Source of the DNA: Blasia pusilla
Lineage: Eukaryota
Direction: 5' to 3'
NCBI GenBank assembly: GCA_050084515.1
Contig: CM114271.1
Span: 29,016,001-29,080,000 of the forward strand
DNA length: 64,000 nucleotides
Positions 1-30,900 of the stretch are shown here, piece after piece (position 1 is the stretch's first letter; every line of letters starts with the position of its first letter). Both the position numbers and the translations under genes were made by a program. The notes below the pieces were generated by a model that was not told where the DNA came from, made no database searches, and saw only the letters and a program-made list of their open reading frames with translations.

Positions 1-2883
1 ACCCAACATGATGATGAGGGTAGAGAGTTTGTGGTGGCTTATGCTAGCCGCTCGAACAACGCTGCAGAGGCAAAGCACAGCTCGTATAAGGGTGAGTGTT
101 TGGCTGCGATGTGGGCTGTCGCGCATTTCAGGCGTTACTTATTCGGAAACCCCTTTACCATCATCACTGATCATCAACCACTGAAGTGGTTGATGGAGTC
201 CCACAAGCTCATAGGGAAGCTTGGGAGATGGGCTGTGTTGTTGCAGGAATATGATTTTCAGGTGGTACATAGACCTGGGACGCTCAACCAGGATGCAGAT
301 GGGTTGAGTCGTAACCCATGCCCGAGTCAGCGAGATGCGATTGGAGCTCGATGGCATGGAGAGAGTGATGAGGAGTCAGTGCCAGGATGGCATTCGTCAG
401 CCTATTTAGGCATGTTGGCTATGGAGAGCTAGAGTATGGAGACTTCGATGGCGAGGTCTAGTAGAGAGTCCTTGGATCCCGATGCCAGTGAGGAGACGAC
501 AGGTGGCCGAGATATTCATGATGATGGAGTAGTCTTGGAGTACCTTCGGACTAGCAGCGTTGCGAGCACCGTGGGTGCTAGAGAGCGGGATCGGATCCTA
601 CAGCGGGCCATACAGTTCCGTTGGGAGGGGACACATGTTTTGAGGGTTTGGGAGGATGGCAGAGTACGCGTAGTGCCACATCCTTCGTTGAGAGCACGAC
701 TAGTGCAGCATGCCCACGAGGAGTTGGGTCACTTTGGGGTGAAGCGGACGTATAGCTTGCTCCAGATTCAGTTTTGGTGGCGAGGCATGCAGACTGACGT
801 TCAGCAGTTTGTTTCCAAGTGCATGGTGTGTGATCGGGTCCGAGCATCGTTCAATGCTCCGACTCCACAGTTGCATCCATTACCGATCATGGGCTTAGGG
901 TATAGATGGAGTTTGGATTTTGCAGGACCTTTGCCTTTGACGGAGTGTCACAGTCGTTATGTGTTGGTGATGGTCGAGCACTTCTCGAAGTGGATCGAGT
1001 TGGTTGCATTGCTTGACAAAGCGAGTGAGGGAGTAGCTTATGCCTTCCTTGACAGAGTGCTGAGTCATTATGGCGCACCCGTTGAGGTGTTGACAGACCT
1101 AGGTACTGAGTTTCGCGGTGAGTTCCACGCCTTGTGTGATCACGAGCTCATCGACCATCTTACGACTTCGTGAGATCATCCCGAGGCGGATGGATTAGCG
1201 GAGACAGTTGTGCAGACGGTGAAGAAGGGTTTACGCAAGTATGGCTTGCAAAGAGGTCACCTAGGAGATTGGGACCTCCAGTTGCCCTGGTTGGCGATGG
1301 GATACAGATTCAGCAGGCAGGCATCCTTAGCGTGTTTTTCACCGTACTTGCTACTTTATGGCCGAGAGCCAGATTTACCTGCGGCCATTCGTCGAGATGT
1401 TGGTGAGGTGCTGGACCTTGATGACCTAGATGTATGGGTGCGAGCATGTTCTCAAAGGGCTGAGTTATTTCGGAGAGTGATGCCCATGGCGGTCTAGAAC
1501 TTGACGATTGCGCAACATGGGGATACGTTGAGGTATGCGACTATTCGAGGTGATGGTTATCGACCAACTATCCGAAGGTTTCATCAGGGAGATTATGTCT
1601 ACTTGCAGCAAACGGCACCAACGACGTTGGATGTGACTACAGGGCGCACTATCCTGAGAGTGCATGACGTTTTGCCATCCGGTGTTCTCTTGCTGGAGGG
1701 ACGCGATGGTATGGTATGGAAGGACCATATGTGTAATTTTGCACCATGTCACCTTCTTGACATTGATGGTACAGATCCAAGCTTAGCAGTAGTTCCTGCA
1801 TGCTTGCATTGTATGTTGTGTGGTTCTGCCCGTGGTGCGGCCACAATGCTAGTCTGTGATGGTTGTTCGAGAGGTTGGCATATGGCATGTCTGACGCCAC
1901 CTCTCACTAGGGTTCCTCCGGGACGATGGATGTGTCCCAGATGTACATAAAGGAGATACTAGGTAGGTTTTAATCCCGACTTTTTCTCTAATATGGATGA
2001 CAGGAAGGCGACTAACGATGGAGCCACATGAGCACCCGACCTTCTTGGTCTTAACATCCGAGAGATGTATGTCATGGTAGGTAGGGATAGATGGCTATCC
2101 GGAGTTAGAGGGACCTAACCACCAGCTAGGGGAGCGATTGGAGATATTTTGGTACTTCTTGTCTCGTTGTTTGGATGCCATGAGTTAGCATGGGATTGTG
2201 TGTGTGTTCGGTGACAGCGATGTGTATGCGCACGACAGTTATCACGTCCTTTAGGATAGATCAGTGAGATCTAGTAGAGCTTCTTCAAGAGCAGTGGAGG
2301 ACAGGCCTAGGAGGTCGAGGATGACCTGCTGAGGCCCCGAGAAACCTGAGAGAGCAGGTTTCCCTTTCGTTTTGGCTTATTTGGAGCCATATTGAGGAAC
2401 TTACTATTTTAGGTAAGTACCATATCGAGTATATGATCGACTTTATATTTTTGGTAAGTGGCCCTTGATCTCCTACATCAGGTCAAGAGCCAAGGAGGTG
2501 ACTTGGGAGAATAGGTTACCATGGAGAGGGCTTGGGAGAGGGGAGGGATATATATCCCAAGGAGAGAGAGCTTGAGAGCTCATTCTCTCTTTGTTGAACC
2601 TCTTGGCATGAGGCGGCGGAGCTATGGTCCCTTGCCTTATGAGTGTAACCCGAGCCTCTCATTAGGAGAGTGGGTTTGGTTTGACATGAGAGAGAGTGCA
2701 CACCTTTGAGAGCTATGGTGTGAGATGGTGTAGAGAGAAATTGGATCTTACTTTAATTGGAGATATTTTGGTACTTCTTGTCTCGTTGTTTGGATGCCAT
2801 AAGTTAGCATGGGATCGTGCGTGTTTGTGTGTATGTTCGGTGACAGCGATGTATGTTGTGTAGCGATGTGTATGCGCACGACA
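1..2883 (+). mobile_element. 3' part of a Ty3/Gypsy-type retrotransposon (RNase H, integrase, PHD finger) ending in split repeats B1-GT-A2-B2; degenerate
   Basis: RNase H (VAYASR..ECLAAMWAVAHFRRYL..TDHQPL), integrase HHCC (HAHEELGHFG..CMVC) and core (WSLDFAGP, LTDLGTEF), PHD CMLC..CDGC..WHMAC..CPRC. In-frame stops present. B1 2137-2237, GT 2238-2239, A2 2240-2755, B2 2756-2883 ending GCACGACA. Confidence 0.9.
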
Positions 2884-8819: not shown

Positions 8820-9609
8820 TCAACAAGTTACACGATTGATAGTCTGAAACAAATATGACAAGAACACTAGTGGTTGGTCAGATGTGAACGGACGACGAGG
8901 CAAGCGACCCCCTACTACCTCCGCTCGACATATCAATGCCAAGGCTTGTGCACGTTGTGAGGCCATTGAGATGCACCGCCAAAAATAAGTAGTAACTATA
9001 GAGAAAGAAGGACCACATGAAGGGGCAAGGTGATGCTTCTCGAGGGAGTGGTGAGCACATGTTTCTAGGAAAGTATCAAAAGATACATGTAAATGACCAA
9101 ATACTTCCACTGCAAAAGGATTGAATCCATCAGTCGCATGTCTCACAACACAACTTAACTCCTTGATTCTTGCTGCAGCTTCGACCGCCGAACCTTTGGT
9201 ATGTGCGGCTCGACACACCAAATTAGAACGTGTGGGATCAGAAACCACCACATCACTTAGTGTCCAAAATTCACCTCTAGAAATAATAAGATCAACTCTC
9301 CAACAAGAGGTTTATTGTGTGGTCGAAGGTAGGACATGGAGCTTCTCTTGCCCAAAAGTGTACCTTGCAATACAAGCCACCGATGCTAACGCCTCTCTAA
9401 TCACATCATGTGTGGCCGTTCGTTCTCCACCATGTGCACATCGGAGAATATGGATACCTTTTGCATCAATGGAATCCTTGCATACACAATTTGGCACACC
9501 TAACATAGAAGGATGGGGAAGTCCAAGGTGTAACTGCAAAGCTATCGAGAATATACTTTGAGGAAGATAAAATGGAAGAATCAGAGGATTTTCAATAAGC
9601 CATGCCCCC
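8820..9609 (-). pseudogene. C-terminal part (zinc finger plus restriction-like endonuclease) of a CRE-like non-LTR retrotransposon, interrupted by the insertion at 9610-19476
   Basis: CVC..HILRC..G.ERTATHD zinc finger; VVVSDP..KE and FNPFAVEVFG RLE-type motifs. Joins 19477+ in frame (RSCACTGA|GAWL) when a 4-bp TSD is removed. Confidence 0.7.
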
Positions 9610-9978
9610 TGTCATGACCATACGGATTATGTCGTAGAGTATGGTGTGCTAGTAGAGGCCATTCCTTATGTAGGACCGTAGTGGATTGGTAGAGATGCGG
9701 TTCCATACATAGGGTTGGGGTTACTCGGTTGGGGTGACTTTCCCAAGAGGGGCCCGCTCTTAGGTTGGAGGATATAAGGTGGAGTGCACTCAAAGAACAG
9801 TCAGTTCTTTGAGTTGAGCCTCTTGCGTTGGGAGTTAGCCTTGGTAGTGAGTAGAGCTCTTGGCTATGGTGTTTCCCGCAAGCTTCGACCTAGATTCTCC
9901 CATCGTGGAGTGGGTTTGGCTCTCGATTATATGTGATTGTAAACGTGTTTTATGACAGTAGGTCTTTCACGGATTTCA
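9610..9978 (+). repeat. Terminal repeat A1 (369 bp), with a TATA-like GATATAAG at about 9771
   Basis: Near-identical to 19002-19370. Identity stops abruptly after GGATTTCA. No TGG-type tRNA PBS follows. Confidence 0.92.
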
Positions 9979-11689
9979 CTCAAAGAACTGGAGTAGATCG
10001 ATGGTAGCTTCGATTGTAGATCAGTAGGATCTGGTTAGGGCTGATTGTGTACTCAGCCGTGGATGTTCGGGGCTTGTTGCCTATGCTGGAGGTGTGAATC
10101 AGGTGCGTGGTTGGTTGGGAAAGAAGTGCCTTTTAGAGAGCTTTCCAACGCGCTGTAGATCGCCGGATTTCGTCAAGGGAGTTGGAAGTTATCAAGCATT
10201 GAAGATTCTGGTCGTGTTCGACAGTTTTCTGATGTGGAGAGCTTGGAGTGCGGAAGCTGTGTTGAAGTTCATCTAGATCGGGTGAGAGGTTCCTGTTGCT
10301 ACTCGTATTGTGATCTCCTGTGAATCTATCTGCTCGAGTGTGTGGAGCGTTGCGGATTTCTGCGTGCATGAAACTTGGCGGAAGCGCTGTCGGATTTGCG
10401 GTTCTAGAGGTGTATGGACAGCAAGTTTGTTTGATTTTTAGCTCGGAGTACAGAGCTCGGTTGTAGCTGATTTTTTGTGGAGAGATAGCTATGGTGGTCA
10501 ATTGAATTATGATCGAAACAGATTTGATTTCGGTCACGTATTTGTGAAATAATTTCTGATCGAAATTTCGCGGACTAGCTCGAGGTCTGGCTATGGTGGA
10601 CAGCGGATGGGAGGGGCTGGTTGGTTGGTGACTCGTTCATTTTTGGAGACGCCTATCCCGTTGGGGGCGCCCTGGTTGGACCTCTCTCCATAGCGAAGCA
10701 TGGCGAACGGGGCATGTCTCGAGCATTTCTCGAGGCCGAGGCCGAGGCGAGGCCGAGGCAACTCGTGGTAGCTCGGGGCGAGTGGGCGTGAGAGGCGGAG
10801 TAAGGAGCAAGCAAGCAAGCTTGCTTGCTTGGGCGTGAGGCAATTTTTGCAGGATTTGGGATTTGAGTTTTGCATAACTGGTCACCCATCTTTGGGCTAT
10901 TCTGCCTGGAGGACGCTTAACTGCCGAGTTCTTAACTATGCCAGTGTACAGACTGTTGTAGCTCATTTGGTGCTCTTCGGAGATGTGTTAGGCGCTTTAT
11001 GCATCTCAGGTTTTTGGTTGATGTACCTCTAGCGCATAGTACGGTGTAGCCTCTCCATGCAAGTGATATTTTCAGGTGCTGCGAGTTCGACTAGCACGTC
11101 ATCGACCCGCGGCGGAGTAGCTATTGCGTTAGAATTGTGTGGTGGGTTTTGTGGATTCAGGGGGCACCACGTTTGGTGGATTGTGTTACCTTGATTTCCA
11201 TTTGCGGTTGGAGGGTTGTCATTGGACTTCGTATGCGGATCCCCTCCATCGTGCTTCTTCTTGCTTGCGCCCATTGTTAGGGTTGACGCTGATTTCGAGT
11301 AGTGTTACTCTGTGTGCTACCGGTAGTGAGGGTGGAGTGATGACCGATGACCGTGGGAGGCTTCTTGTAGTGATGAGAGGTTAGATTGCCTACACCCATA
11401 GCTAGTAGAGCTACAATAGTAGAGCGACATCGACGTCACTTGGGTAATTTGGTGGTGGTGCGGCATCGGCGTTGGTCATCACAGAGATGTCGGGTGGTCT
11501 GGTTGGGGACCGTGGTGCGGACAGTGGTGGTTTCACACGGAGTGGATTTAGGTATCGGCTACCTTTTCCACTTCCGACGGTTGATTAAGAGGAGGACCAG
11601 GGTGTTCCAAACACCGAGTCTTCTACGTTCTTATCGAGTGTTGCAACTCCATTGATTTGGGACATGGACGGTGGATATGGGGCCATGAA

Positions 11690-14000
11690 GGGCCCACGAC
11701 GATACTCTAAAAATGGGCACCATTGAGTTGGAGGACTTCATGCAAGAGTTTGATACGTGGTGTGATATGCGGATGTTGGTGAACGCACGTTGTTTACACC
11801 CTTCTTGGCTTGGAAGGGGTTGTTTCAGCACTTGGAAGGACCACCCATGGATGATTACCATGAGTTTAGGAAGGACCATGTTGTTGAGATTGAGGCATGG
11901 AGACAATATTGGTCTCCAGGCTATGTGTCTATCACCCATGGTGGTATTGGTAGTAGTGCTCCTACTATGCCAGCCAGCCCGACGTTGAGTGGTACGAGCA
12001 CGAGCCGGGGGGGTACCGGTGGAGGTACTAGTGCCCCACCATCGTTCACCGGTTGCGAGAGTTCTTCAAGAGGTTGAAGAAGAACTATCGAGGAGTGAAG
12101 ACGGAGAAGTTGAGGAATCTTCAGGACTTTGAGCGAAAGACTCGGTGAGAGTCTTCGTGAGGCATACACTCGTATGCAACGCTTGATTTCGATTACCAGG
12201 GTGTGGCGAGGATCAGCGATCGATTTTGGTATGGGATCTTGACAGAGATTTGCGCCGTAGGGTGCGTGATGCTACTCTTATGAGTGATGATTCACCCACA
12301 TTGACCCATGTGTTTGCTTTATCTCAGAAGATTGAGCTTAACATGATGAAGGAGAGAGTGGTGACATCCGCATTCAAGAGGGGATACAACTACTACTTCT
12401 CGTGTTCGGCCGCCCACCTCACGATCTCGTAGTAGTGGTGGTGGTAGTAGTAGTGGGAGTCGTGGGGGTACACACGACCTCGTCAAGTCCTAGAGGGACA
12501 TTTGTGCAAAGACCATTGCCTTCATTTGCTGCCCCGCAGCAGGGCGATCATGTTGGACATGTGGAGGTGATCATGTTAGGAAGTTTTGTCCCCAAGAGGA
12601 TGGGAGACGGACTTTGGAGGATGGGCCTCAATCGGCCCCAACTCAGTGTGATCATTGCAGGAGACTAGGTCATCCACGAGAGCATTGCTTTGATCTTCAT
12701 CCAGAGTTGAGATCAGGCCGTGGCCGTGGTGGAGTAGCTCGAGAGGCCGAGGTGGTTGAGGTGGTAGGGGTGGTAGAGGTGGACCGGTGGTTGGAGAGCC
12801 TACGGTGGCTACCCCTACCCACTACTGACAGAGTCGACTATGGTCGCCATGATTGAGCAGATTGGGAGCGAAGTTGGCTACTATGGTGGTATCCGGGATA
12901 GATCGAGTTCGGGAGCAGGGCTTCCACCTCTTATGGAGGGATGATCTCTCTTATATGGCGAAAAGACAAAGTTGAGGCATCGGTGCGATTTAGAGGAGCC
13001 ACTCGAGCGTCGAGCCACGTGGTGCTCTTCAGGAGTTGGACCCACAGAGGGGTGAGGCCGAGGCAGGCTAGGCTTCCCAGTCATTCTTGTTGTCGAGGTG
13101 CTTAGGACTCCATCCATGGTTCCTCACGCAGCCTATTGAGCGGCAGTGGGGACCGAGGCATCTACATCGAGTGTAGTAGACACGGATGCAAAGCATCCAA
13201 TGCGATGTGCGGATGGCAACCCGGTGTTGGGATCCCCATTGTTTTCGCCACGAGTCGATGGCTTTAGGAGTTGACTTAGCTCTGTATTTCAGTAGCGACC
13301 ACGTTGTGTGAACGTGGAGGTGTTTCTTGCTACACGTGTTGAAGTGGATGAGGGTGTTGCGGTGGAGCGACCCTCTATGTCGGGAGTAGCATTGAGTACG
13401 GTGCTACTTGGCAAAAGCGGCGGCGAAGATGGATGCATTACCAGCCCGGCTAGCCATTGATCGTGAGAGGCTTACACCTGGTGTATGTATGTTGGACAAC
13501 CGGAGTGGGATCTTCCGATTGGTGAGTCCTACAGGACATGTGTATAGACCAGATAGAGTCTTGTTAGACTCTGGTGCCCAACCTTTGATGTTGGGAAAGG
13601 CGGCATGTATTGGTTTGGGTATTCGAAGGTCAGAGCTTGAGCCTTGCCCATTCTAGATTCAAACATCACTTGGAGGAGCCAATGATAGGTTATATATATC
13701 ATTATATTCGAACTCTACTCTGAAAATATTTCGATTAGATGTAAATGATTTCAAACTTGCCCCGCTTGACATCAAAGCAAGGGAGCTTTATCAAGAGGCA
13801 GTGAATGCCCTCAATTCATGACACGGGAGAAGTTTTCTGTACAGTTGAGACTAGATCATGCGACTGATAGCTCCCGGTTGGGAGTATCTGCGGTAGTCAC
13901 ATCAGCCGAGTCGTATGATGTACTAGTTGGAGGAGCAGTATTGTACCCGATGGGTTTTCAGATGGATTATCGGATCGGAGACAGCGTCTTCTGAGACCTG
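11690..14000 (+). pseudogene. Gag (zinc knuckles) and aspartic protease of the retrotransposon
   Basis: CWTCGGDH..C and CDHCRRLGHPREHC knuckles; VLLDSGAQP protease active site at about 13560; YDVLVGGAVL downstream. Multiple frameshifts and an AT-rich insertion at about 13690-13810. Confidence 0.75.
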
Positions 14001-14409
14001 GTTGGCAGTCCGGGGATGGACGTATGAGCCAAGTTCCTGTGAGATTTATTTCTGGGGCTCGACCAGGAGGGTCTTCCCCAACAGTGTTAGCATTTGTGGC
14101 TGGTTTTAGTGGAGTAGTCATTTGGCCCGGAGACTTTTTGGAGGGTAATGTTTCTGCTATGGATTCTCCTGCGCATGAGGAGGTAGAGGAGGTCCCTATT
14201 TTTGCAGCAGTGGCATCCTCATCGTTGGATGTGCCACTTTGGAGTTCAGGCGGTGCACTACCGCAGGAGGCTGATCGCCTAGTGCATGAGGCTTGGTGTG
14301 AGGCTGTTATACCTCACGAGGAAGAGGAGTCCCTACGGCGGACTCCTACTTTTGGTCCAGCTGGGTTATCCCCTTTGGATACTACACCCATTGTATGGCA
14401 GTATCCGCC

Positions 14410-15360
14410 GGAGGGTATTTGTGTGTTAGATCTCTTTGGTGGGATTAGCACTGGTTTGGATGCAGTGTTGCAGGCCGGTATTCCTCTGCGGAGATACGTG
14501 TATGTGGAGCGAGATGAGACGGCCCAGAGAGTCTCATCTCGACATATTGGTCAGTTGATGCGGAGATACCCAAAGTTGTTGCCGCCATCAGCTATTCGTG
14601 GATACCAGCGTGCTTTACCATCACACATTGCATTGTTGAGCGCGGGACCTTGAGAGGGTTGGTCCTGTGGATTTGGTGATTCTTTGGATGGCCATGTCGG
14701 TCATACACGTCTTTGGTCGTGGTGAGGGATTACATGACCCTAGGTCTCGATTGTTTTGGGAGATGTTACGGGTGTTACAACATCTTGAGTTCATCGAGCA
14801 CGTGCTCTAGCTTACATTCGGAGAATGTTCCATTGTTGGGTGACACTCGGACCCGGATGATGGCGAGTGTTCATGAGGTGCGGTCTTGGATTGGACGGTG
14901 GTGTTGGATGCGTGGCGAGTTGGCTCGCGTGCACATAAATCCACGCTTGTGGTGGACAAACTTGTTGCCTAGGGAGGTTCTCGTCGAGCATATGATGCAA
15001 AGGTAACGGGATCCTCGCCTTACGGTGGATAGTATCTTGATCTTTGGCGACTTTCTCAAGTGGTGAGGGTTATTGATCGGTCACCCATGGCGGTGGTGAA
15101 CCGTGTGGGGCGACCTAGGATGGCACTACCCACATTTGTGAGTTTTCCTCGTCACATGCCTCTGAGGAAGGTGGTCAGGGCTTGTATGGGATTCTCATGT
15201 GCGGCGGTTGGTGGAGCCTAACGCTGATGAGAGAGAGCGTGCGATGGGATTCGCTATTGGTGTGACAGCGGTTGCTTCTATTTTACGAGGCTTCACGACG
15301 TCATGTGTTGGGTCAGGCCATGGACCTGGAATTGTTTGACTTGGATTTTGAGTCTTGGTA
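14410..15360 (+). pseudogene. C5 cytosine DNA methyltransferase domain (DNMT3-like) embedded in the retrotransposon pol
   Basis: Motifs in canonical order across frames: I VLDLFGGIS, II YVERD, IV GWPC (about 14686), V GLHDPRSRLF, VI ENVP (14821), VIII PRLWWTNL, IX ERERAMGF, X RRHVLGQAM. Confidence 0.85.
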
Positions 15361-15769
15361 TGGCGGAGCAGCGTCGACTTCGGACTATGTCTGTGGGTCT
15401 TCCACCCTTGTAATGAGCTCGATGGCTACCGGGACGGTAGAGGCATCGGTCAGGCGAGGAGAGTAGTATTTTGCATCCTTGGAGTAAATGGGATGTAATG
15501 GTGGGCATGTGGAGTTGGTTGCTCATCTTTGGTGGCGGAGTTATTTGCTCGGATGATGGTGTAGCTAAGGGTGTACCATCTTGTGAGGGGGTTGCGAGCA
15601 GACCAATGGCATCGTCCTCTCCCTCTAGTGTGCGGTGGAGGAGGAGACTTGGGAGCTATTACTTGGGCCCAAGCTTACGGGAGGTGAGAAACGACGCTGA
15701 CACGCGGTTCCTACGTGCTTATAGGAGTTGTTTTGCCTTTAGCATGAAGGAGTTGGGTTCTCTGGTTGG

Positions 15770-17080
15770 ACCGGTGATATGGATTGATTTGGCTAGTGAT
15801 ACGCCAATCTTCCGTCGTCCCTACCGATATAGTGATATGGAGAGGGACTTGATTGAGTAGGGCGTTGGACCTTTTGGAGGCTGGATTAGTGGAGTTGTCG
15901 CATGGAGAGTATGCATCGCCACTTTGTCATGCTCGCTAAAAGGATATGCGTGGCAACTTCACGGATAGGCGGATGTGTGGAGATTACCGTCCTATCAATC
16001 GGCAAACCAAGGCCGATAGGTATGCCATGCCTACACACGAGAGATCTTTGATGTGGTGGGACAGGCAAAGATTTTCAGTACTTTGGATCTTCGGGCAGGA
16101 TACCATCAATTGCCGATTCGGGAGAGTGACAAGGCCAAGACAGCATTTTGGGGTGTCAACTCTCATGGCAAGGATTGTTTGTACCAATGGAAATTCTTAC
16201 CCTTTGGGTTGAAGAATGCACCTTCCGAGTTTCAAAGAGTGATGGACAGGATCCTAGCAGGGCTGGATTTTGTTCGGTGTTACATTGATGATATCTTGGT
16301 GTTCAATAACACGGTGGAGGAGCATCAGATACATTTGCAGATGGTGTTTGAGCGGTTGAAAGCTCATGGTCTACGTTTGCATCTAGGAAAGTGTAAGTTC
16401 TTCCATGAGGATGTTGAGTACTTGGGTCATGTGATCTATCCAGGTGGTTTGGGAGTTCAGCAAGCAAAGGTGGAGGCTATTGCACTTATTCCGCGTCCGG
16501 TAGATGTGAGTAGAGTTCGAGCATTCATGGGATTGGCGAACTACTATCAGAGGTATGTGAAGGGATTTAGTGCTATGGCAAAGCCTTTGAACCAATTGCT
16601 GAAATCAGATCAAGAGTGGCACTGGGAGATGATCGAGGAGAGAGCTTTTGTGGAGCTTAAGGCCTAGTTGGTGGCGGCGCCTATCTTGAGGAGACCTATC
16701 AGAGGGCGCCCATTTCAATTACACATTGATTGGAGTAGGTTGGGACTTGGAGCGGTGTTGACACAACATGATGATGAGCACATGGAGTTTGTGGTGGCCT
16801 ATGCAAGTCGTTCGAATAATGCAAATGAGTCGCGCTATAGTTCATATGAGGGAGATTGCTTGGCGAGAGTGTGGTGTGGCACACTTTAGGTGTTACTTGT
16901 TTGGCACACAGTTTACCCTTGTTCTGATCACCGGCCGCTCAAGTGGTTGATGGAGTCGGACAAGCTTACAGGGAAGCTTGCACGGTGGGCTCTTATCTTA
17001 CGGGAGTATGACTTCCAGGTTGTACATAGACCTGGAGTTGCCAACCTTGATCTTTGATGGGTTGAGTAGGAACCCATGTA
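15770..17080 (+). pseudogene. Reverse transcriptase and RNase H (Ty3/Gypsy type)
   Basis: RMCGDYRPIN, LDLRAGYHQ, KTAF, LPFGLKNAPSEFQ, YIDDIL, YLGH, VVAYASR. Confidence 0.92.
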
Positions 17081-17439
17081 CTAGCCAAGAGGATACAACG
17101 GGGCTAGATGGCATGGCGAGGTTGATGAGGAGATGGTGCCAGGTTGGCATGCATCCGCCTTTTTATGTTGGTTAGGGGTGGACTCTAGTATGGAGGACCA
17201 CATGATATCTTACTCTAGTCAGAGGGTAGATGGCCAGCCTTCAGATCCTAAGGTTGGAGATGGTGGTACGGATCAGCGTGATATTCATGATGATGCGTTG
17301 GTGTTGGAGTTCCTTCGGACCGGTAGGGTGCCAAGCATAGTGAGTGCCAAGGAGCGAGACCGTGTTCTTCAACGTGCTAAGAGGTATCGATTGGAGGGAA
17401 CACATATTCTCCGCGTGTGGGAGGATGGTAGAGTATGAG

Positions 17440-18720
17440 TAGTGCCACATTTGGCTCAGAGAGAGCGCATTGTGCGACATGCCCATGAGGAGTTGGGACA
17501 TTTTGGGATAAAGCGTACGTATAGCTTACTCCTTGGCCAGTATTGGTGGCGTGGCATGCATACTCAGGTGCAGCAGTTGGTGTCACGTTGTATGGTTTGT
17601 GACCGGGTGAGGGCATCATTTAATGCCCCTACACCACAATTACACCCCTTGCCTATTATGGGGTTGGGTTACCGTTGGAGTGTGGACTTTGCGGGACCGT
17701 TACCGTTGACTGTACGACATCATCGATATGTGTTGGTGATGGTGGAGCACTTCTCCAAGTGGATTGAGTTGGTGGCATTACCGGACAAGGCAAGTGAGGG
17801 AACGGCGTATGCATTTCTGGATAGAGTGCTTAGTCATTTTGGTGCACCAGCTGAAATCTTGACCGACCGAGTCTGAGTTTGGGTGAGTTTCAGGTCTTAT
17901 GTGACAAGGCGTTGATTGATCATCGGACCACGTCTCGAGATCATCCAGAGGCGGATGGTTTGGCTGAGCGTGTGGTTCGAGGCGGTGAAGAGGGCATTGC
18001 GCAAGTATGGCCTCTGAAGGGCATCTTGAGACAGGATATTCGGTTGCCATGGTTAGCCATGGGGTATAGGTTCGATCGCCAAGCATCCTTGGCTTCCTTC
18101 TCACCTTATTTTTACATTATCGGCCGAGATCCAAACTTGCCATCAGCAATTCGTCGAGTCTAGTGAGGTGGTGAACCTTGATGACCCGAGAGATGTGGAT
18201 GAGGGTGTGTTCTCGCGAGCGGAGCTCTTTCGGAGAGTTATGCCAATGACCTTTGAGAATCTTGCCATTGCTCAACACAGGGATACGTTGCGGTATGCAA
18301 CCATTCGGGGTGGAGGTTATCGACCATCGATTCGTAGGTTCCATGTGGGGGACTATGTCTATTTGCAGCAGATTGCCCCGACAACGTTGGATGTGACGGC
18401 AGCCGCACTATTTTACGAAGTGCGTGAGGTGTTAGCTTCCGGAGTTCTCATGTTGGAGGGTCGTGATGGAGTTGTTTGGAAGGACCATGTGCGTAATTGT
18501 GCGCCATGTCATCTTCCAAATGTGGATGGTACTGTTGACCCAAGCTTAGCCATGATACGTGCTAGCTTGAGGTGCATGTTGTGTGGGTCTGCTTGTAACG
18601 CAGCCTGACCCCGTATGTTGGTGTGTGATCGGTGTTCTAGGGGTTGGCACATGATGTGTTTGACTCCACGTTTGGATGTTGTTCCTCTTTGGAAGGTGGG
18701 TTTGTCCTCGATGTACTTAG
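17440..18720 (+). pseudogene. DDE integrase with C-terminal PHD finger
   Basis: HAHEELGHFG..CMVC zinc-binding domain; WSVDFAGP, EILTD, ADGLAER core; C-terminal CMLC..CDRC..WHMMC PHD at about 18570-18716. No tyrosine-recombinase ORF was seen. Confidence 0.9.
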
Positions 18721-18893
18721 GAGAGGTAGATGACTTGATCTTTGCATGATATGGATTACTGGATGTGCGACTAACGATGGGGCAACCTAGCACCCGGCCT
18801 TCGATTCGAGCACCCAAGAAGGTGTATAGCATGTAGTAGATGTATAGGGCTACCTGGGAGTTAGAGGACCTAACCGCTTGATTAGGGGGTCGA

Positions 18894-19476
18894 GTTGTGG
18901 TACACTTGCGTTTGTGGATACTCTCGTCTATGTTATGTATGTATGTGCGTATGGTATGTCAGCGATGTATGTTGTATGACGATGTGGATTCGCACGACAG
19001 TTGTCATGACCATACGGGATTATGTCGTAGAGTATGGTGTGCTAGTAGAGGCCATTCCTTATGTAGGACCGTAGTGGATTGGTAGAGATGCGGTTCCATA
19101 CATAGGGTTGGGGGTTACTCAGTTGGGGGTGACTTTCCCAGTAGGGCCCGCTCTTAGGTTGGAGGATATAAGGTGGAGTGCACTCAAAGAACAGTCAGTT
19201 CTTTGAGTTGAGCCTCTTGTGTTGGGAGTTAGCCTTGGTAGTGAGTAGAGCTCTTGGCTATGGTGTTTCCCGCAAGCTTCGACCTAGATTCTCCCATCGT
19301 GAAGTGGGTTTGGCTCGATTGTATGTGATTGTAAACGTGTTTTATGACACTAGGTCTTTCACGGATTTCAGTTGTGGTACACTTGCGTTTGTGGATACTC
19401 TCGTCTATGTTATGTATGTATATGCGTATGGTATGTCAGCGATGTATGTTGTATGACGATGTGGATTCGCACGACA
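18894..19476 (+). repeat. 3' terminal block: B1 (18894-18999), GT, A2 (19002-19370), B2 (19371-19476)
   Basis: B1 and B2 are 106-bp near-identical direct repeats. Junction reads CACGACA-GT-TGTCATG. Confidence 0.92.
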
Positions 19477-21170
19477 CCCCGCTCCGGTACACGCACATGA
19501 ACGCATAAGAGTTTGATGAGCGTCAAAGGATGCTTTCAAGAGAATGATGGAAAAGTTGATTTGGTGCAAATTCTCAAAGATATGCTCTTGAAGTCGATCA
19601 AGCCCTTTTGTAATCAATTGACTGAAAGAGGGGTAGAATTGCTTATGTAGCAAGAGGAAGAAGAGCTCTGGTTGATCTCAGTTGTTGATTAAATAAAAAG
19701 TCCCCCTCCTCTACATAGGCGACATGATCCATCAAGATGGGTGTATCTCTTTGGAGAAACCTTGAAGCCATAATCGGTGGTACCAAGGCCCAACTCCCCA
19801 AAAAAGCTGATGGAGCATATGCAACTGTGGAGGAAAGTCCCACCCGTCCAAAAGAAATAGGCAAGATAGCTTGTCGTGAAGCTAAGATATCATCCTCTCC
19901 CTTCAATGTATTCGGGCCAAGAAGTTGACCAAAAGTTGCCAAAATAGAAGCGTCAAAAGAGTTCAACCGATGTAAGAACCTTGAAGTGGGAGTCAAGTGC
20001 AAAAAAGGTAGGAAGGACGTCGTAGAAAATATTGGGAGAGAATCCCATAAGCCACTTGGGGATCCCCTAAATGAGGTAACAAATGAAGCCATTCCAGGTC
20101 TTTCAAAAGGGCCTCATCCAAGAATTTCGAGATATATCGGTGAAGCCAATTGGGACCCCAAGAACCCTAACCCCTAAAATGCAGATGAGAAAATCAAGAG
20201 CAGTCAGGGTGAATGTTGAGGGAAGTCATGAAGGAGACCATACTCCACATTTAGTAGGTTGGACTTTAAGGTTTAAGAAAGAGAGTTGCTCCACAAAATA
20301 GATATAAGCAGGAACCACTTCAAAAGGAGGAGCTATAATATGAGTGTCATCAGCAATAGAAGAGAAAAGACCAGATCGAAATGCTTGCGTTAATGCTCGA
20401 AAGGCACAAAATTAAATGGGCAATGGCAAAGAGTGGGTCATCCATGGGATCACGTTGACGCGTGCCACAAGCCGATTGAAGAATTCTATATTCCTAGAAG
20501 TAGCATGATGAGAATAGATAATGGGCGTATCATGGGCATAAGAGGAGCAAAAAATGGAATGAGACTTGCGAGTTGTCCTCTTGCACAACATAACTCCTCA
20601 AACATGGCCTCACGAGAAACTGAATTGAATTCGTTAGCCACATCGACTGGAATTGCTACCCACTCTCGGTGAATATCAAGAGTGGAGCGAATCCCATACC
20701 ACACCTCACAACCACCAAGAGTTGCCACTCCAAATTGATGAGGAAATAAGTGGGCACTAAAATGAGGATGAAATTGCAAGCACGGGGATCGACTAACCAA
20801 GCGGTATAAAACCTCTCCAATAGCCAAACGTGAGACACGTGAAGGAGGCTTATCCATAGCCAAAAAATGACAAGCCCCTAAGAGCCTAGGGATAGAGAAT
20901 GGGAGACGACTTGCCGCAATATCTGCACACACCTTATATAGTGAGACAAAGCCACTTCATGAATCTGCCTGGATAAAGCAATTGTGGAGATGCTCAAAAA
21001 CCATCCCTAATAGCCCGCTTGCTGATAAGTGAGGAGAATGAAGAAAAGCCCTTGTGAAAACCTCCAAGTCAAGCTCCATTGTATAGTCTTCCACAAAAGG
21101 TGATGCATTACCACTTGAAGGAAGGTGAAGAGCTTCTAAGAGAGCCACTGTGTCCGCACTTGGAACCGCC
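19477..21170 (-). pseudogene. RT-containing part of the CRE-like non-LTR retrotransposon
   Basis: RLAIGEVLYRL, PHQFGVATLGGCE, PVDVANEFNSVSRE, IADDTHI, RQAILPISFGRVGL, AFLGSW motifs on the minus strand, with stops and frameshifts. Confidence 0.75.
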
Positions 21171-23921: not shown

Positions 23922-26128
23922 TGTCACATCTTATTTCGACGTAGGTAGAGTTCTATCGCGTCGACGGCATAGGGAGTCATCGGGCTGTTCCGATGTAACT
24001 TTGTCCCGAGATGTCGGATGAGGTTGGCGACAGGTGTGTTATGTCAGGAACGTCGTTTATGGCGATTTTCCTATTTTGGTTTTAGTCTGTCAGGTGAACC
24101 GTTGACCGAGTCAACGGTCATCCGGTAACTTATGCACGTAGGTTATCGTTGGTACGGCTATTTTTGGGGAAAGAGCCTTTTGGCTCTTCCCAAGGGTATA
24201 AGAGTGAGGAAGATGGCTTTCTCAAGCCATCTTTCTCATGTTGAGCCTTAGGAGCGCCTCTCTTGCATAGACGTGTGTGGGTGTGTAGGAGTTAGGGTGC
24301 TAGTGTCCGGATTCCCTCATGGTAGAGGATGGATGTGGTTTGATATGCCGATGTAGATTCATGAGTGGATTTTTAGGCCGGGTGAGCCATTTTTACTACT
24401 CTTGAGTACTCTAGGAGGAGACGGCTTCTTATAAGCCAGGGTGGCGATCATGGACATGTGAGCCATCTACGAGTGTTGTTTGCACGGAGTAGTGGTGGTT
24501 GACCACGTGAGGATACGGTGACAATGCTGGCAGCATTCACAAGTACATGCGGAGGACATTCATGTAGCGGATAGTCCCACGGAGAGATATGTCAGGGTGG
24601 GTGTCTCTTCCCATGGTGCAGAGCTTCGTTATTGTTGTTGGGGATGAGCGTGGAGTGCAGACAAGCTTGTGAGGCAAGCGTGGAGCCGTGTCTATGTTTG
24701 GAGGAGGGTACGAGAGTGTTAGATCTCTTTGAAGGGATCAACACAGTTTTGTGTGTAACAGTGTTGCGGAGATGACGGCACTGATGGTGCTAGATATATA
24801 TAGGATAGGAGATCATGTCGGGGACATATGTGTGTGCTATCTGGAGTTAGGGGGACCCAACTGCCAACTAGGGGGGTGGTTGTGGGATCCCTTTCATGGT
24901 TGCAAAAAAATGAACAAGTCCTTCCTTAGGACGGACAAGTCCATGGACATGGGTTCCATGAGGTGGGACCCACACTTGTACTCCATGATGGAAGGTGAGG
25001 CAAGGATGAGTGGATTAATAAGGGAGGAGGTAGTGGAGTTAGAGGGAGGAAGAAACTGGGGATTATGGAACACGAAGGCAAGTAAGGGGACGGAGAAAGA
25101 AGGGAAATGTGGAGCCCATATGGACAAGTCCTTCCATAGGATGGACATAAGTCCACGAACACAAACTTTTTCCATATGCGATCTTGGTCCCTTTGTATAT
25201 GCGACGTACACAAGTTACCGGGCGATCGTTGACTTGGTCAATGGTTCATGTGCCAAACTAAAACTAACATAGGAAAATGGCCATAAACGACATTCCCGAC
25301 ACAATAGACATATCGCCAACCTCATCTGGTATCTCGGAATAAAGTTACACCCAAACAACCCGCTAACTCTCTATGTCGTCAACGTGATAGAACTCTACCT
25401 ACGTCAAAATAAGATGGCCCAGACCTGAGAGTAGCTAGTGTGACGTCAGCCTCCACATCTTACCACGATGCTAGTTTATGTGTGGATCTACCCGTATGTT
25501 GGGAAAGATTGGTGTTGTGTGGTGTGTAGATGTGACAAGTGATGTGGGTTTTGTAGCGATATGTATGCGCACAATAATTTTCATATCTTATTTTGAGGTA
25601 GGTAGAGTTCTATCGCGTCGTCGATGGCATAGAGAGTTAGTAAGTTGTTTGGGTGTAACTTCTTCTCGAGATGTCGGATGAGGTTGATGACAGTTATGTT
25701 GTGTCGGAAACGTTGTTTATGGAAAATTCCCTATTTTGGTTTTAGTCCGGTAACCTGATCACGCAGGTTACCGTTGGTAGGGCTATTTTTGGGGAAAGAG
25801 CAAGGAAGATAGCTTTCCCAAGCCATCTTTCTCATGTTGAGCCTTAGGAGCGCCTCTCTTGCATAGACCTGTGTGGGCGTGTAGGAGATAGGATGTTAGC
25901 ATCCGGATTCCCTCATAGTGGAGGGTGGATGTGGTTCGATATGCCGATGTAGATTCATGAGTGGAGTTTTAAGTCAAGTGAGCCATTTTTACTACTCTTG
26001 ATTTTGTTGTGGGGTCTCGATGTATATGCGTAATTTTATTTTGTTTATGTGTGGATCTACGCGTACGTTGGGGTAGATTAATGTTGTGTGATGTGTAGAT
26101 ATGACTAGCGATGTGTATGCGGATGACA
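23922..26128 (+). mobile_element. Non-autonomous split-repeat retroelement: A1 23922-24405; B1 about 24889-25576 (interrupted); A2 25579-26001; B2 26002-26128
   Basis: Starts TGTCACATC, ends GATGACA. TSD GCCT/ACCT; removing 4 bp restores the Copia zinc-knuckle sequence seen uninterrupted at about 55430-55480. No pol motifs inside. Confidence 0.8.
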
Positions 26129-27693: not shown

Positions 27694-27949
27694 CATCATG
27701 GAGAATAAAAATTTACAATTAGAGAGTAAGTGGGGGCTGATGCCTTCCTCAATATATAACTAAAGTTATACCAATTATGGTTAACTAACCCTAGTTAAAA
27801 TAATCGCACTTACCTAACTGACAAATATTAAACTTTCCTTCTTTGTGTAAGTACCAAATGGAGTATTTTGTGTGTTTGATAAGGTTGACTATAACTCAAT
27901 TTTTAGTATTGCATATACCCTCCTCAAAACCTCGTGTGGAACCAAGTTG

Positions 27950-30900
27950 ATCCATCACAACCGCGGACAATATGCTAGTGAATCCACATTCGATGCATCC
28001 AAAAACAGCGTTGACTCCTCACAATAAACCAAGGTGAATCCCGTTGGGTACAATGTTGCTCCACTAACTAAGATATGATACGTTTTGGCATCGACTACTA
28101 TGAACTCATTTGTCAGATGTCTTGGTTGAATCTTCAACACGACCTTATGTTGGGTTATAAACTACGTTGTACTCACTCCACCAAGGAGGTATGGATCCTA
28201 AATGGGCAACGCTCCACATTGGTCTTTGTCACATCCAATCCAGTAAATACCACCTTACCCAACATCAAGGGTTGCGCTCTTAAATCCAATAAGACATATT
28301 GTAGAAAAAACACTCTACAACCTAGACTAAAAAAAATGGAAGATCTCTCCACGGTTATGTAGCAAAACAATACTCGACGACACCTTTGGAAAACTCTATC
28401 ATTGGCGTAGCGAGCATCTTTGCCATTCTAGCAATTGTAACTTGCCATGACTTTGAGGTGGACATTTCGAGTATAGGCTCTAAGGGAGCTTCCACCACCT
28501 CCTCTACAACTGCCTCTGAATACGAGGCAATAACACCATCTCCATCCTTTCATAACAGATCGGCCGACCTGAACATCTTAGTGGGCAAATGTCTCAATAT
28601 CACAACATTGGAAGCCAAAACCACAAGATACTATAAATGATAGTGGTTGCCCTGAAAATAATACTCAACATGAGCTCTTCTTAAGCATTAGCAATAGGAG
28701 TCTTTGCACTTGCTTCTCCCATTGCTTGTCGTGCTTACACATGAACGACACTCGACTTGCGAGAACTCTAATTAAGACCCGTCAATGGAATTCTCATCAC
28801 CTCGAAGATTGTAAAGGACTAAGAAAGCTTCGTCTATTTCCTAGCCTCCCCCATATGTGGATCCAACTTCACGACTGTTTCACGTGGAATGACATCGAAA
28901 ACCTCGATCTATATAGCCCTGCATATCCTCCTTTTCACATCTTATTTCGACGTAGGTAGAGTTCTATCGCATCGACGGCATAGAGATTCACCGGGTTGTT
29001 CTGGTGTAACTTCGTCCCGAGATGTCGGATGAAGTTGGCGATAGGTGTGTTGAGTCGGGAACCTCGTTTATGGCGATTTTCCTATTTTGGTTTTAGTCTG
29101 TCAGGTGAACCGTTGACAGAGTCAACGGTCATCCGATAACCTATGCACGTAGGTTACGGTTGGTAGGGCTATTTTTGGGAGAAGAGCCTTTTGGCTCTTC
29201 CCAAGGGTATAAGAGTGAGGAAGATGGCTTTCCCAAGCCATCTTTCTCATGTTGAGCCTTAGGAGCGCCTCTCTTGCATAGACGTGTGTGGGTGTGTAGG
29301 AGTTAGGGTGCTAGTGTCCGGATTCCCTCATAGTAGAGGGTGGATGTGGTTTGATATGCCGATGTAGATTCATGAGTGAAGTTTTAGGCTGGGTGAGTCA
29401 TTTTTACTACTCTTGATTATTGTTATGGGATCCTAGTGTATATACGTGAGTATGTTCATTTATGTGTGGATCTACCCGTATGTTGGGGGAGATCGGAGTC
29501 GTGTGGTGTGTAGATGTGACCAGCGATGTGGGTTGTGTAGCAATATGTATGCGCACGACATCCTAGATATCCTTGTGCATATCCAACCAAGATCCTCCAT
29601 TTCCTTGGGTGCTCCATATGAGGTCGATGCCACCAAGGTTGCACATGGACAAAGTCCGTTGTCGTGTCGAGAATCTTTCTTCGAGCAAGGGCGGGCCTTC
29701 TAGCTGCGGTAGATGCGGTCGATGCAAGGTGAACTCTCTAATAAGTTCTCCTTTTTCAATACAAAATTATGATGTACACTCTCCATTCTCTCACGACAGG
29801 TATCACAAATGGAAGTGCCGAGGCGATAACTTCTTCGTAACATCGGATCCCGAAATTCCTGACTATAAAATCCCTATAAACTATTTTACGTTTGTACACG
29901 AGAAAGATAGCACAACTAGTGTTAAACCCTACTTGATCAGGCCTATTGACATCCATGGATCGCTATATAAGGACATACAAAGTACAATCCCATGTCCTTC
30001 CATATGTGACGATAGGAAGAATCACCGAAGTTGGAGATTGCATGACCTGGTTCATGAACGCCTCCCCAAAGTGATAAACTAAATAGCGAGTGAACCAGTG
30101 CCTATCTACAAAGAGTACCTTGACATGGTAAGGATTGAGAAAGGAAAGTCGGGCATAGCTCGTGCTCCACCCCTATCCATGCTTGACAGACATTCTCTAC
30201 TCTCCTCAAGAATGGGTTTGGCGGAGTTATTCTCCCAAGGGGTAATCCACTCTCATTGGGAAAGTAACAAGCCAAAACATCCGCTATTTTAGTATGACTA
30301 AACTCCTCTCGGTGACAAACCTCTCATCCCCCCACACACACACACCACACTCTAGAAACCTCTCGAAGAATAGACCATGATCAAGTTACTCTCCCAAGAG
30401 GGGTGATCCACTCTCATTGGAAGAACAAGCAATCCCAAAGCCATACACTCAAGAGAGACACTAGAGACTCAAGATGTGGAATAGAAGGTGATGAACCCTT
30501 GAAGGTCCCTCCTCTTTATATACTCACAAGGGATCCACAAGAGTACGAAATAGAGCTTATCTTATCTTGTGCCACATGGCTTCCTCTCAAGGCTTAGCCA
30601 ATCACATTTTGACACAAGTAGATTTCCTCTTATCTCTTCAAAAATATCCTCTTTTACCCACATGATATTTTCCAAATTACCCCAACTAACCTAGCCACCA
30701 ACCAAGACTACTTTTACTTTTCATTAAAGCAACTACTTTACTTTTATAAAGTCATCTTTTATTTATTACCTCATTTTCTTAAAGTTGGGCCCGCATAAAA
30801 GAGACACCATAAAGAGGTTTAAACATAAGAATCTCCCTTTTCTAAGCCAATTTACTTAATACTAATGAAACTCTATCTAACACTTAATGACGAAGGAGTT

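Follow-up and report, generated by a model that had tools for sequence, protein, structure and literature searches.

A decayed Ty3/gypsy-like retrotransposon with a DNMT3-like methyltransferase remnant between protease and reverse transcriptase, and its relatives in liverworts and Sphagnum

Cytosine methylation is the main route by which plants silence transposons, so a transposon with a de novo methyltransferase of its own presents a paradox. Does the DNA analysed here (a stretch of 64,000 nucleotides, hereafter the window) hold such an element, and what might the element gain from the enzyme? Methyltransferase-carrying transposons described so far come from dinoflagellates and one charophyte alga, Klebsormidium, according to the accessible text of PMC5890265, and the mention of these reports in a preliminary description of the window proved to be accurate. 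We identified a Ty3/gypsy-like element at 9610-19476 (plus strand), in which a DNMT3-type remnant is sited between protease and reverse transcriptase (RT). The domains follow the order gag (CCHC), protease, DNMT3-like methyltransferase, RT, RNase H, DDE integrase and PHD finger (Table 1). Consistent with the position proposed earlier for the methyltransferase, a D-S-G protease stretch is found within 13396-13656, before the domain, and a Pfam RVT_1 match at 16020-16667 (E 5e-31) after it, followed by RT_RNaseH_2 and RT_RNaseH matches at 16668-16889. The protease remnant is 91% identical to a Sphagnum troendelagicum protein, and 119 bases within it (13691-13809) are missing from most other copies, the joint 13690>13810 being present in both RNA and DNA reads. 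We assign the element with considerable confidence to the Gypsy-DNMT3 kind, and 9610-19476 is likely to represent a decayed insertion of such a retrotransposon, bounded by split direct repeats in the arrangement A-coding-B-A-B.

Table 1. Features of the DNMT3-bearing element and of related sequences in the window
Feature	Position	Strand	Remarks
3' part of related element: RNase H, integrase, PHD finger	1..1950	+	one frame, 3 stops, cut by window edge
Candidate 4-base target-site duplication CCCC	left 9606..9609, right 19477-19480	.	chance 1 in 256, weak support for element ends
Repeat A1	9610..9978	+	starts TG, ends CA; 96.5% identical to 19002-19370
TATAAG within A1	9773-9778	+	
11-mer AGTTCTTTGAG within A1	9803-9813	+	
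Primer-binding-site candidate CTCAAAGAACT	9979..9989	+	directly 3' of A1; perfect complement of 9803-9813
gag remnant	11664..13250	+	many frame changes; tblastn to P0020 residues 1-530; frame-aware alignment
Two CCHC knuckles of gag	in 12494-12856 ORF	+	seen in ORF translation
Aspartic protease remnant LLDSGAQPLMLG	13417..13970	+	78% identity to P0020 residues 588-680
Conserved protease-methyltransferase linker	13991..14353	+	single frame; 74/113 residues identical to P0020 residues 739-851
DNMT3-like C5 cytosine methyltransferase remnant	14354..15551	+	motifs in 14410-15340; 16-17 frame changes
RT and RNase H remnants	15702..17120	+	84% identical to Marchantia protein P0031
DDE integrase remnant: zinc-binding domain and rve core	17439..18160	+	Pfam Integrase_H2C2 E 3e-17, rve E 2e-9
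PHD finger remnant, integrase C-terminus	18576..18720	+	one stop and one frame change; aligns to PHD finger of neighbouring element
Purine run AGGGGG, putative polypurine tract	18884..18889	+	just 5' of B1; similar run precedes B1 in locus L013
Repeat B1	18893..19001	+	99% identical to 19370-19476; 80-83% identical to B in related loci
Repeat A2	19002..19370	+	second copy of 11-mer at 19197-19207
Repeat B2	19370..19476	+	element end ...CACGACA
Older, internally deleted remnant of DNMT-element family	27901..28462	-	protease piece and DNMT motif VIII piece

The methyltransferase remnant can be read across several frames. DLFGGIS and YVERDE share one frame, up to 14653, GWPC, ENVPLLGD and PRLWWTNL lie in the frame 14680-15006, ERERAMGF is found at about 15232-15265 and RRHVLGQAMD in the frame of 15266. 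The conserved C5 motifs I, IV (PC), VI (ENV), VIII, IX and X are canonical in order and align to DNMT3A and to the intact Marchantia protein P0020, and their places in the preliminary description are borne out by the sequence and the ORF translations. P0020 is collinear with 11664-15509 (tblastn, linked E 7.7e-134); searched by itself against 1.3 kb, its methyltransferase part still matches at E 3e-47 and 6e-46. By frame-aware alignment, residues 860-1260 of P0020 map to 14354-15551 with 270 of 391 residues identical, 16 frame changes and zero in-frame stops; a second relative, P0008, has 293 of 401 residues identical to the domain remnant, with 17 frame changes. The copy is frameshifted, as had been noted. 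None of the window's five methyltransferase fragments, searched separately rather than as a frame-joined translation, matches Pfam PF00145, because the core of the profile is split over several frames. The PF00145 search suggested at the outset is negative for these fragments and positive for most intact relatives: eight of ten, plus five of six in a second set, score above the 22-bit cut-off (24.7-44.8 bits), most of the matches covering profile positions 48-127 only and two extending to about 158.

Among solved methyltransferases, DNMT3A, 3B and 3C rank first by sequence, profile and fold searches. P0020 has DNMT3A as its top match (phmmer, E 1.7e-8), and a 36-sequence profile of the domain places DNMT3A (3e-28), DNMT3C (4e-26) and DNMT3B (1e-25) ahead of tobacco DRM (9e-17), Arabidopsis DRM2 (3e-13), HhaI (2e-9) and DNMT2 (2e-5); the 57 sequences at E<=1 include no DNMT1 chain. 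In a Foldseek search with the AlphaFold model of P0008 (pLDDT 77.6, most 10-residue blocks of 91-420 above 90), every PDB match listed is DNMT3A, 3B or 3C (best E 2e-17, target TM about 0.8). Together with the collinearity of P0020, these rankings uphold the reading of the locus as a retrotransposon-borne DNMT3-like cytosine methyltransferase. The domain shares with the animal enzymes (2qrv, 6f57, 6u8p, 8tci) the canonical motif order, and the PC, ENV, R-x-R..W.N stretch and E-x-E..GF...LG tail all align. In contrast to these enzymes, with which identity is about 20%, it lies inside a retrotransposon polyprotein and lacks N-terminal PWWP/ADD reader domains (none found by Pfam in P0020, P0013, P0025, P0048 and P0050), and its motif VIII-IX region has roughly double the DNMT3A length, so that the target context cannot be read off. 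Plant DRM (tobacco 4onj, Arabidopsis DRM2 7l4c) forms the second-best solved group; its motifs, however, are circularly permuted.

If the resemblance were due to chance, or to a host gene fragment captured by this copy alone, the failure of the window's own fragments to match Pfam would be expected. This explanation is barely credible given the extended homology to proteins that themselves pass the PF00145 cut-off, the second methyltransferase remnant in the window, 14 related loci found in metagenome contigs and hundreds of related proteins, those of Marchantia among them; other copies, too, carry the domain. Related elements bear members of the same large and conserved DNMT3-like family as the remnant. 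Searches among 1.84 billion representatives returned 230 clusters at E<=1e-30, the best 150 representatives all matching at E 1e-39 or better. Most of the relatives in the protein searches are without a species name; those with names come from Marchantia polymorpha, Calypogeia fissa, Riccia sorocarpa, Sphagnum fallax, Sphagnum troendelagicum and Sphagnum tenellum. The preliminary description had held that methyltransferases are not standard in land-plant elements. This statement needs qualification: the domain is not the oddity of one element, its family being large and spanning three liverwort genera and three Sphagnum species. Across 178 full-length domains, 28-85% identical, the motif I Gly is kept in 177, the catalytic Cys in 176, the ENV Glu in 178, the ENV Asn in 172 and the two motif VIII Arg in 175 and 176.

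The related loci are themselves all decayed: 2-11 in-frame stops interrupt the domain, and the family part of all 14 lacks an ORF of at least 300 residues; the uninterrupted forms are known as database protein models only, not from their DNA. Pairwise dN/dS among these loci is 0.43-1.03, mostly 0.5-0.7, which is of limited value in decayed copies, in contrast to the Ka/Ks below 0.2 reported for the Klebsormidium element methyltransferase (PMC5890265, text as accessible). Values for the window against the loci are lower (0.30-0.43), but here dS is saturated at 0.99-1.46. These calculations left out L015 and L016 (34% partial matches that are not family), minus-strand matches, extra L013 copies and all codons with stops or gaps.

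The Marchantia gag-protease-methyltransferase proteins might instead be domesticated host genes, with the window copy as a pseudogene derived from one of them. P0020 represents 18 member sequences, and four Marchantia models (P0020, P0013, P0002 and P0014) stop at one place, just after the methyltransferase, as domestication could explain. Against this speak the terminal repeats of the window copy, its TG..CA ends and its candidate target duplication, and its methyltransferase tail is followed in frame by RT, RNase H and integrase. Each search also returned from at least 7 to at least 15 Marchantia models, and in P0025 and P0031 methyltransferase and RT occur together, so we regard domestication as highly improbable. 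The common end of the four models had also prompted us to consider a programmed frameshift between methyltransferase and RT. We rejected this for the Sphagnum-like lineage, because the methyltransferase tail and the RT head are in one frame in seven of nine loci and in the window.

The window copy itself is dead: it is unable to make the enzyme and is without function. We counted about 16 frame changes in the methyltransferase domain and about 52 over the coding part, and the same frame-aware program gave 0-1 in five control alignments. Assembly error as the source of the frame changes is not supported, since the neighbouring element at 1-1950 has none, with the proviso that the present stretch may differ. 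At the breaks 15281, 15328 and 15404 other copies differ by one letter in length, as seen in DNA contigs at 15281 and in most RNA reads at 15328 and 15404.

Family members appear to be transcribed. Three stranded RNA runs from one study gave 4249, 4118 and 4520 reads over the length of the element, with first mates mainly on the minus strand in 90 of 90 bin-by-run cells; the strand excess was more than 5-fold in all cells but one flank cell and at least 10-fold in most. Only 153, 134 and 159 reads of the three runs were at least 99% alike to the window copy, and the RNA depth in this one study comes mostly from other family copies. Sense-strand RNA of these other copies is present in runs that share their species label with the best-matching DNA run. 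The family is also very abundant in the host DNA run, from which 241,094 contigs aligned. Twenty-four molecules in the RNA reads begin at 19164; they do not fix the start or end of the transcript.

The ends of the element depart from the ordinary Ty3/gypsy form, in which two identical terminal LTRs accompany a tRNA-complementary primer site. This element has split repeats instead (A...B A B). The full A-coding-B-A-B arrangement is complete in the window and in two of the 14 related loci (L006 and L013), A-B is seen at the 3' end of L010 and L011, and none of the eight copies showing an A1 has a B upstream of it. The site following A1 complements the element's own repeat and is without the TGG start of a tRNA site. 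Its 11 bases have three matches in the window against 0.07 expected, and none of 100 shuffles reached three. The same 11-mer was found in eight of 16 loci, and it stands at the end of A1 wherever that end could be placed (L002, L005, L006, L007, L008, L010 and L013). From this arrangement, the primer of reverse transcription would probably be the 5' end of the transcript itself, folded back onto the 11-base site that follows A1. Fold-back of the transcript 5' end is the self-priming mode of Tf1. As in the Tf1/sushi group of Ty3/gypsy elements, which is self-priming, the 11-base site after the 5' repeat complements sequence inside the repeat that follows a TATA-like box by about 25 bases; in Tf1 the LTRs are ordinary, and a methyltransferase is absent.

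The closest described counterpart is KnitGypsy-Dnmt3 of Klebsormidium nitens (de Mendoza et al. 2018, PMC5890265). As given in the accessible text of that paper, it is a Gypsy-type element whose Pol ORF includes a methyltransferase related to DNMT3 and without rearrangement, with conserved key catalytic residues and with repeats in the order A-coding-B-A-B, as in DIRS elements. The present family is alike in its Gypsy-type domains with a DDE integrase, in DNMT3 within Pol, in its A-coding-B-A-B repeats and in its conserved catalytic residues, and the first three of these shared features indicate that the two are most likely elements of one kind. Kinship with the Klebsormidium copies is judged from shared anatomy only, none of the named relatives in the protein searches being from that alga. 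Unlike KnitGypsy-Dnmt3, the family has land-plant hosts (liverworts and Sphagnum, by the names of the closest proteins) and a PHD finger; the text of PMC5890265, so far as accessible, names neither a PHD finger nor a self-complementary primer site. SymbioDIRS-Dnmt3 of Symbiodinium, described in the same text, likewise has a DNMT3-like domain in Pol and A-coding-B-A-B repeats, and its domain methylates CG de novo according to the discussion there, but DIRS elements carry a tyrosine recombinase in place of the DDE integrase (Integrase_H2C2, rve) found here.

In the open full-text literature, to which the search was confined (subscription journals and supplements lying outside its scope), we found no description of DNMT-bearing retrotransposons from liverworts or mosses. 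Marchantia and liverworts are unmentioned in the accessible text of PMC5890265; a survey of plant LTR elements (PMC6317226) mentions neither methyltransferase, PHD nor Marchantia, and PMC6453930 holds nothing relevant to DNMT-bearing bryophyte elements. Nor did that literature yield an account of a PHD finger downstream of the integrase, of a self-complementary candidate primer site of 11 bases or of sense RNA along the entire element. The window holds a land-plant element of a kind known from one alga and, in mosses and liverworts, apparently undescribed so far.

What would the methyltransferase do in an intact copy? It would arise by translation within the Gag-Pol polyprotein, from which the protease could release it, as the preliminary description proposed, and is predicted to be an S-adenosylmethionine-dependent DNA cytosine-5 methyltransferase. 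Judging by sequence, we think it somewhat probable that the intact relatives are active DNA methyltransferases. Such an enzyme may act de novo on the element's new double-stranded cDNA or on a fresh insertion, and the PHD finger could steer the integrase to chromatin with a particular histone H3 tail state. Self-methylation of cDNA was raised as a hypothesis for DIRS elements in the 2018 paper (PMC5890265, accessible text); that the element's own cDNA is the target here we infer, and propose only tentatively.

An active enzyme could also be directed elsewhere, either to host chromatin around insertions or, as a self-limiting brake that spares the host, to the silencing of new copies; both ideas appear in the accessible discussion of PMC5890265. 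The PHD finger, if taken as showing an interaction of the element with chromatin, and the great abundance of the family in the host DNA run would fit a target of this type. The present data, however, do not separate action in cis from action in trans, and we consider a target other than the cDNA rather unlikely. Methylation of DNA might also not be the role at all: the domain could methylate RNA (element RNA or primer) in the manner of DNMT2, or serve as a DNA-binding or scaffolding module like DNMT3L. A LINE-borne DNMT tested in yeast gave no DNA methylation, with RNA suggested as its target (accessible text of PMC5890265), and the target-recognition region here differs from that of DNMT3A. 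Both versions are improbable, as the match to DNMT2 is far weaker than that to DNMT3A, and the retention of the catalytic Cys, ENV, motif I Gly and motif VIII Arg in 172-178 of the 178 domains would be unexpected of a non-catalytic module.

On the preferred reading of a DNA methyltransferase, the DNMT3 enzymes borne by such elements could, if active, contribute to the methylomes of bryophytes, which is genetically testable in Marchantia. Bryophytes carry elements of this kind in abundance and transcribe them, and long uninterrupted protein models come from the model liverwort Marchantia polymorpha, so that a tractable land plant is available for testing directly what a transposon gains from a methyltransferase. 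Three further features, namely the PHD finger, the putative self-priming site and the pairing of split repeats with a DDE integrase, bear on element replication and target choice. It is possible, if distinctly speculative, that Gypsy-DNMT3, rather than being peculiar to Klebsormidium, represents an old green-plant retroelement lineage that made its way into land plants, with transcription persisting in bryophytes. Each element would pair a DNA-methylation writer (DNMT3) with a histone reader (PHD finger) and would replicate by self-priming, via an intermediate of unusual form from which A-coding-B-A-B ends result in spite of the DDE integrase, and the domain would have moved within Pol between two architectures (PR-DNMT-RT and RT-RNaseH-DNMT-INT).

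Other traces of related elements occur in the window. A nucleotide match at 24703-24767 (77% identity) was dropped, protein-level support being absent. The minus-strand remnant at 27901-28462 is matched by P0020, P0031 and P0008 (tblastn, E 8e-11 to 2e-5). The neighbouring element at 1-1950 has 71.6% nucleotide identity to 16761-18875, and its PHD finger is recognized by Pfam PF00628 at E 5.7e-12.

The C5-methyltransferase motifs that the preliminary description placed inside pol are present in canonical order, as read from stop-to-stop ORFs and the sequence itself, and the surrounding domains are those of a Gypsy-type element. None of the five DNMT fragments of the window was matched by Pfam DNA_methylase. 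With the fragment at 14680-15006 as query, we identified 23 matches in 87 candidates among longer proteins, seven of which are named proteins from Marchantia polymorpha, 961-1278 residues in length. PF00145 was passed by eight of ten scanned matches (27-36 bits, cut-off 22), the other two being without a match. Window positions 11664-15509 are collinear (linked E 7.7e-134) with P0020, an uninterrupted gag-protease-DNMT protein of 1278 residues from M. polymorpha that represents 18 member sequences.

Features of the element and of related remnants in the window
Feature	Position	Strand	Detail
A1	9610-9978		96.5% identical to A2
Two CCHC knuckles	upstream of methyltransferase		stop-to-stop ORFs
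D-S-G protease stretch	upstream of methyltransferase		stop-to-stop ORFs
DLFGGIS + YVERDE	up to 14653		single frame; ORF translation/sequence
GWPC + ENVPLLGD + PRLWWTNL	14680-15006		one frame; ORF translation/sequence
ERERAMGF	~15232-15265		ORF translation/sequence
RRHVLGQAMD	15266 frame		ORF translation/sequence
RVT_1	downstream of methyltransferase		Pfam E 5e-31
RNase H, integrase zinc-binding domain, rve core	downstream of methyltransferase		
PHD finger	downstream of methyltransferase		broken
B1	18893-18999		99% identical to B2
A2	19002-19370		96.5% identical to A1
B2	19370-19476		99% identical to B1
RNase H-integrase-PHD end of related element	1-1950		
Second, older remnant	28462-27901	-	protease piece and DNMT motif VIII piece

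Frame-aware alignment was performed with a purpose-written program, which called 0-1 frame changes in each of five control alignments. The DNMT remnant (14354-15551) aligned to P0020 at 270 of 391 identical residues with 16 frame changes and no in-frame stop, and to P0008, a second reference protein, at 293 of 401 with 17 frame changes and one stop. The gag-protease part (535/838 identical to P0020) required 24 frame changes and three stops, and the RT-integrase part (509/1085 identical to the protein P0048) 12 and four. The copy is therefore not only frameshifted, as had been claimed, but thoroughly dead. The route of decay is unusual, proceeding by one-letter length changes rather than stops. 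Across 11500-19000 there are ~52 frame changes versus seven in-frame stops. In the adjacent element (1-1950) and in the 14 copies on metagenome contigs, stops occur and frame changes are nearly absent. The excess may stem from a defective lineage that was copied in trans, from misassembly of this region or from another kind of mutation process. In addition, 119 bases of the protease region (13691-13809) are missing from most other copies in RNA and DNA reads, and are probably a local duplication since P0020 residues 653-680 align to each flank.

Ranked similarity, as opposed to phylogeny, suggests that the domain is DNMT3-like. When P0020 was compared with all solved chains by phmmer, DNMT3A came first (E 1.7e-8), followed by DNMT3B and DNMT3C and then HaeIII, tobacco DRM, DNMT2 and HhaI. 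A profile built from 36 short sequences of the family gave DNMT3A 3e-28, DNMT3C 4e-26 and DNMT3B 1e-25, with weaker scores for DRM (9e-17 to 3e-13), HhaI (2e-9) and DNMT2 (2e-5), and no DNMT1 chain among the 57 sequences at E<=1. Unlike DRM, the family domain has the canonical motif order. The AlphaFold2 model of P0008 (20-row alignment) reached pLDDT 77.6 and pTM 0.78, with most 10-residue blocks of residues 91-420 above 90 in pLDDT. The Foldseek matches listed against the PDB were all DNMT3A, DNMT3B or DNMT3C, the best pairing for this predicted structure having E 2e-17 and a target-normalised TM of ~0.8. No PWWP or ADD domain was found in the relatives scanned.

The family extends well beyond the window. 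With the DNMT part of P0020 as query there were 78 matches, including 15 named Marchantia models, Calypogeia fissa (77% identity), Sphagnum fallax (51%), many contigs and, from the chlorophyte genera Monoraphidium and Haematococcus, partial matches; the best 120 of 244 profile matches add Riccia sorocarpa, Sphagnum troendelagicum and Sphagnum tenellum. A HMMER search of 1.84 billion cluster representatives returned 2363 proteins at E<=1e-3, of which 793 also reached E<=1e-10 and 230 reached E<=1e-30. Functional residues hardly vary in the 178 domains with a complete core (28-85% identity to P0008, median 34%): the motif I Gly is kept in 177, the catalytic Cys in 176, the Glu and Asn of ENV in 178 and 172, and the two motif VIII Arg residues in 175 and 176. 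This near-invariance argues against a non-catalytic role. The putative methyltransferase would act on cDNA or a fresh insertion, which we consider, at modest odds, its most likely role. According to the discussion in a 2018 paper (PMC5890265), the DNMTs of SymbioDIRS-Dnmt3 from Symbiodinium can methylate CG de novo; roles proposed in that paper are cDNA methylation on reverse transcription, protection from editing, chromatin effects at the insertion site and a brake on transposition.

Two architectures were found among 316 fetched proteins, with Pfam checks on some. The layout of the window, PR-DNMT-RT, was assigned to 47 from the order of neighbouring domains, RT-RNaseH-DNMT-INT-PHD accounts for 103, and 166 comprise the DNMT part alone. 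In the commoner architecture (P0050, P0058, P0063 and others) a ~40% identical domain lies between RNase H and integrase, a position suggesting that the domain was relocated within Pol or exchanged between related elements. Over the linker and first motifs, the window copy is about as similar to Marchantia copies as to Sphagnum-type ones (64-69%). Its RT shares 84% identity with a Marchantia protein, and for its protease the identity is 91%, to a Sphagnum protein. By homology, the host belongs to the bryophytes. Four Marchantia models (P0020, P0013, P0002, P0014) share an end ~70 residues past the methyltransferase, just before RT, which may mark a stop common to one subfamily; other models span this point. 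Seven of nine Sphagnum-like loci have DNMT and RT in one frame.

The element is bounded by split direct repeats in the order A-coding-B-A-B, also complete in the metagenome-contig loci L006 and L013, with the 3' A-B visible in L010 and L011. No B was found upstream of A1 in the eight copies showing an A1. Between the window and the related loci, conservation is higher in B (80-83%) than in A, for which it is 71-76% over part of the repeat. The element begins with TG, terminates in CA and has CCCC on both flanks; at the B1/A2 junction (...ACA GT TGT...) the two element ends are joined. The 2018 paper gives the SymbioDIRS-Dnmt3 repeats as "A-coding region-B-A-B" and describes KnitGypsy-Dnmt3 of Klebsormidium nitens as having DIRS-like repeats with Gypsy-element domains (PMC5890265). 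Because Gypsy-type domains, a DNMT3 in Pol and the rare repeat layout are shared, we file the window element with KnitGypsy-Dnmt3, as compared by published description. DNMT3-bearing Gypsy elements are already known from that paper, and a passage of a 2026 preprint cites "streptophytes (Gypsy-DNMT3)" as prior work. In the full-text literature, outside supplements and subscription journals, which may hold such descriptions, we found no description of liverwort or moss elements of this kind, of a PHD finger in DNMT3-bearing Gypsy elements or of a self-complementary primer site in them.

Tf1-type elements self-prime, and the sequence following A1 looks like an analogous arrangement. Directly after A1, CTCAAAGAACT (9979-9989) is the perfect complement of AGTTCTTTGAG (9803-9813), which sits ~25 bases past a TATAAG box and occurs again in A2. 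With an expectation of 0.07, three matches for this 11-mer pairing occur in the window, a number reached in none of 100 shuffles. The same 11-mer is present in 8 of 16 loci, at the A1 end wherever that end is placed, and its partner in L007, L008 and L013. We regard it as a candidate primer site. Within repeat A (9789-9813), CTCAAAGAAC and GTTCTTTGAG pair perfectly over 10 bases around a 5-base loop, giving a hairpin whose first arm is the same sequence as the candidate. An AGGGGG run lies just 5' of B1 in the window and L013.

Expression was assessed in three stranded RNA runs of one study, with the species label of the best-matching DNA run. Reads at least 90% alike over 9500-19600 numbered 4249, 4118 and 4520, with depths of 7-190 inside the element versus ~5-12 in flanking bins. 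First mates fall mainly on the minus strand, indicating mainly sense RNA by the convention of most stranded libraries. Few reads were at least 99% alike (153, 134 and 159), and the RNA therefore derives mostly from other copies. A one-letter length change sets most RNA reads apart from the window copy at 15328 and 15404, and roughly half the DNA contig depth at 15281; these positions coincide with three frame changes of the P0020 alignment. With 241,094 contigs matched, the family is very abundant in the DNA run. A joint of 17241 to 18250, with 18 other letters between, was seen in 16, 28 and 41 RNA reads and in none of the DNA contigs, and may represent an expressed derivative without most of the integrase.

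Every one of the 14 related metagenome loci (67-80% identical to P0008) has decayed; their domains carry 2-11 in-frame stops and only a few frame changes. Pairwise dN/dS among them was 0.43-1.03, and between window and loci 0.30-0.43 at dS 0.99-1.46. The signal is weak, as would be expected if both partners decayed neutrally since insertion. Elsewhere in the window, a B-like repeat fragment (2822-2883) is directly followed by a second PHD-like stretch (2884-3084), ~900 bases past the PHD finger that belongs to the 1-1950 element. The coding strand of the element at 9610-19476 strongly favours G over C (31% and 19%) and T over A, as do L013 6258-15223 (G 27%, C 17%) and window 1-1950, and this skew seems characteristic of the family. 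Observed/expected CpG ratios are 0.76 for the window element and 0.54 for L013.
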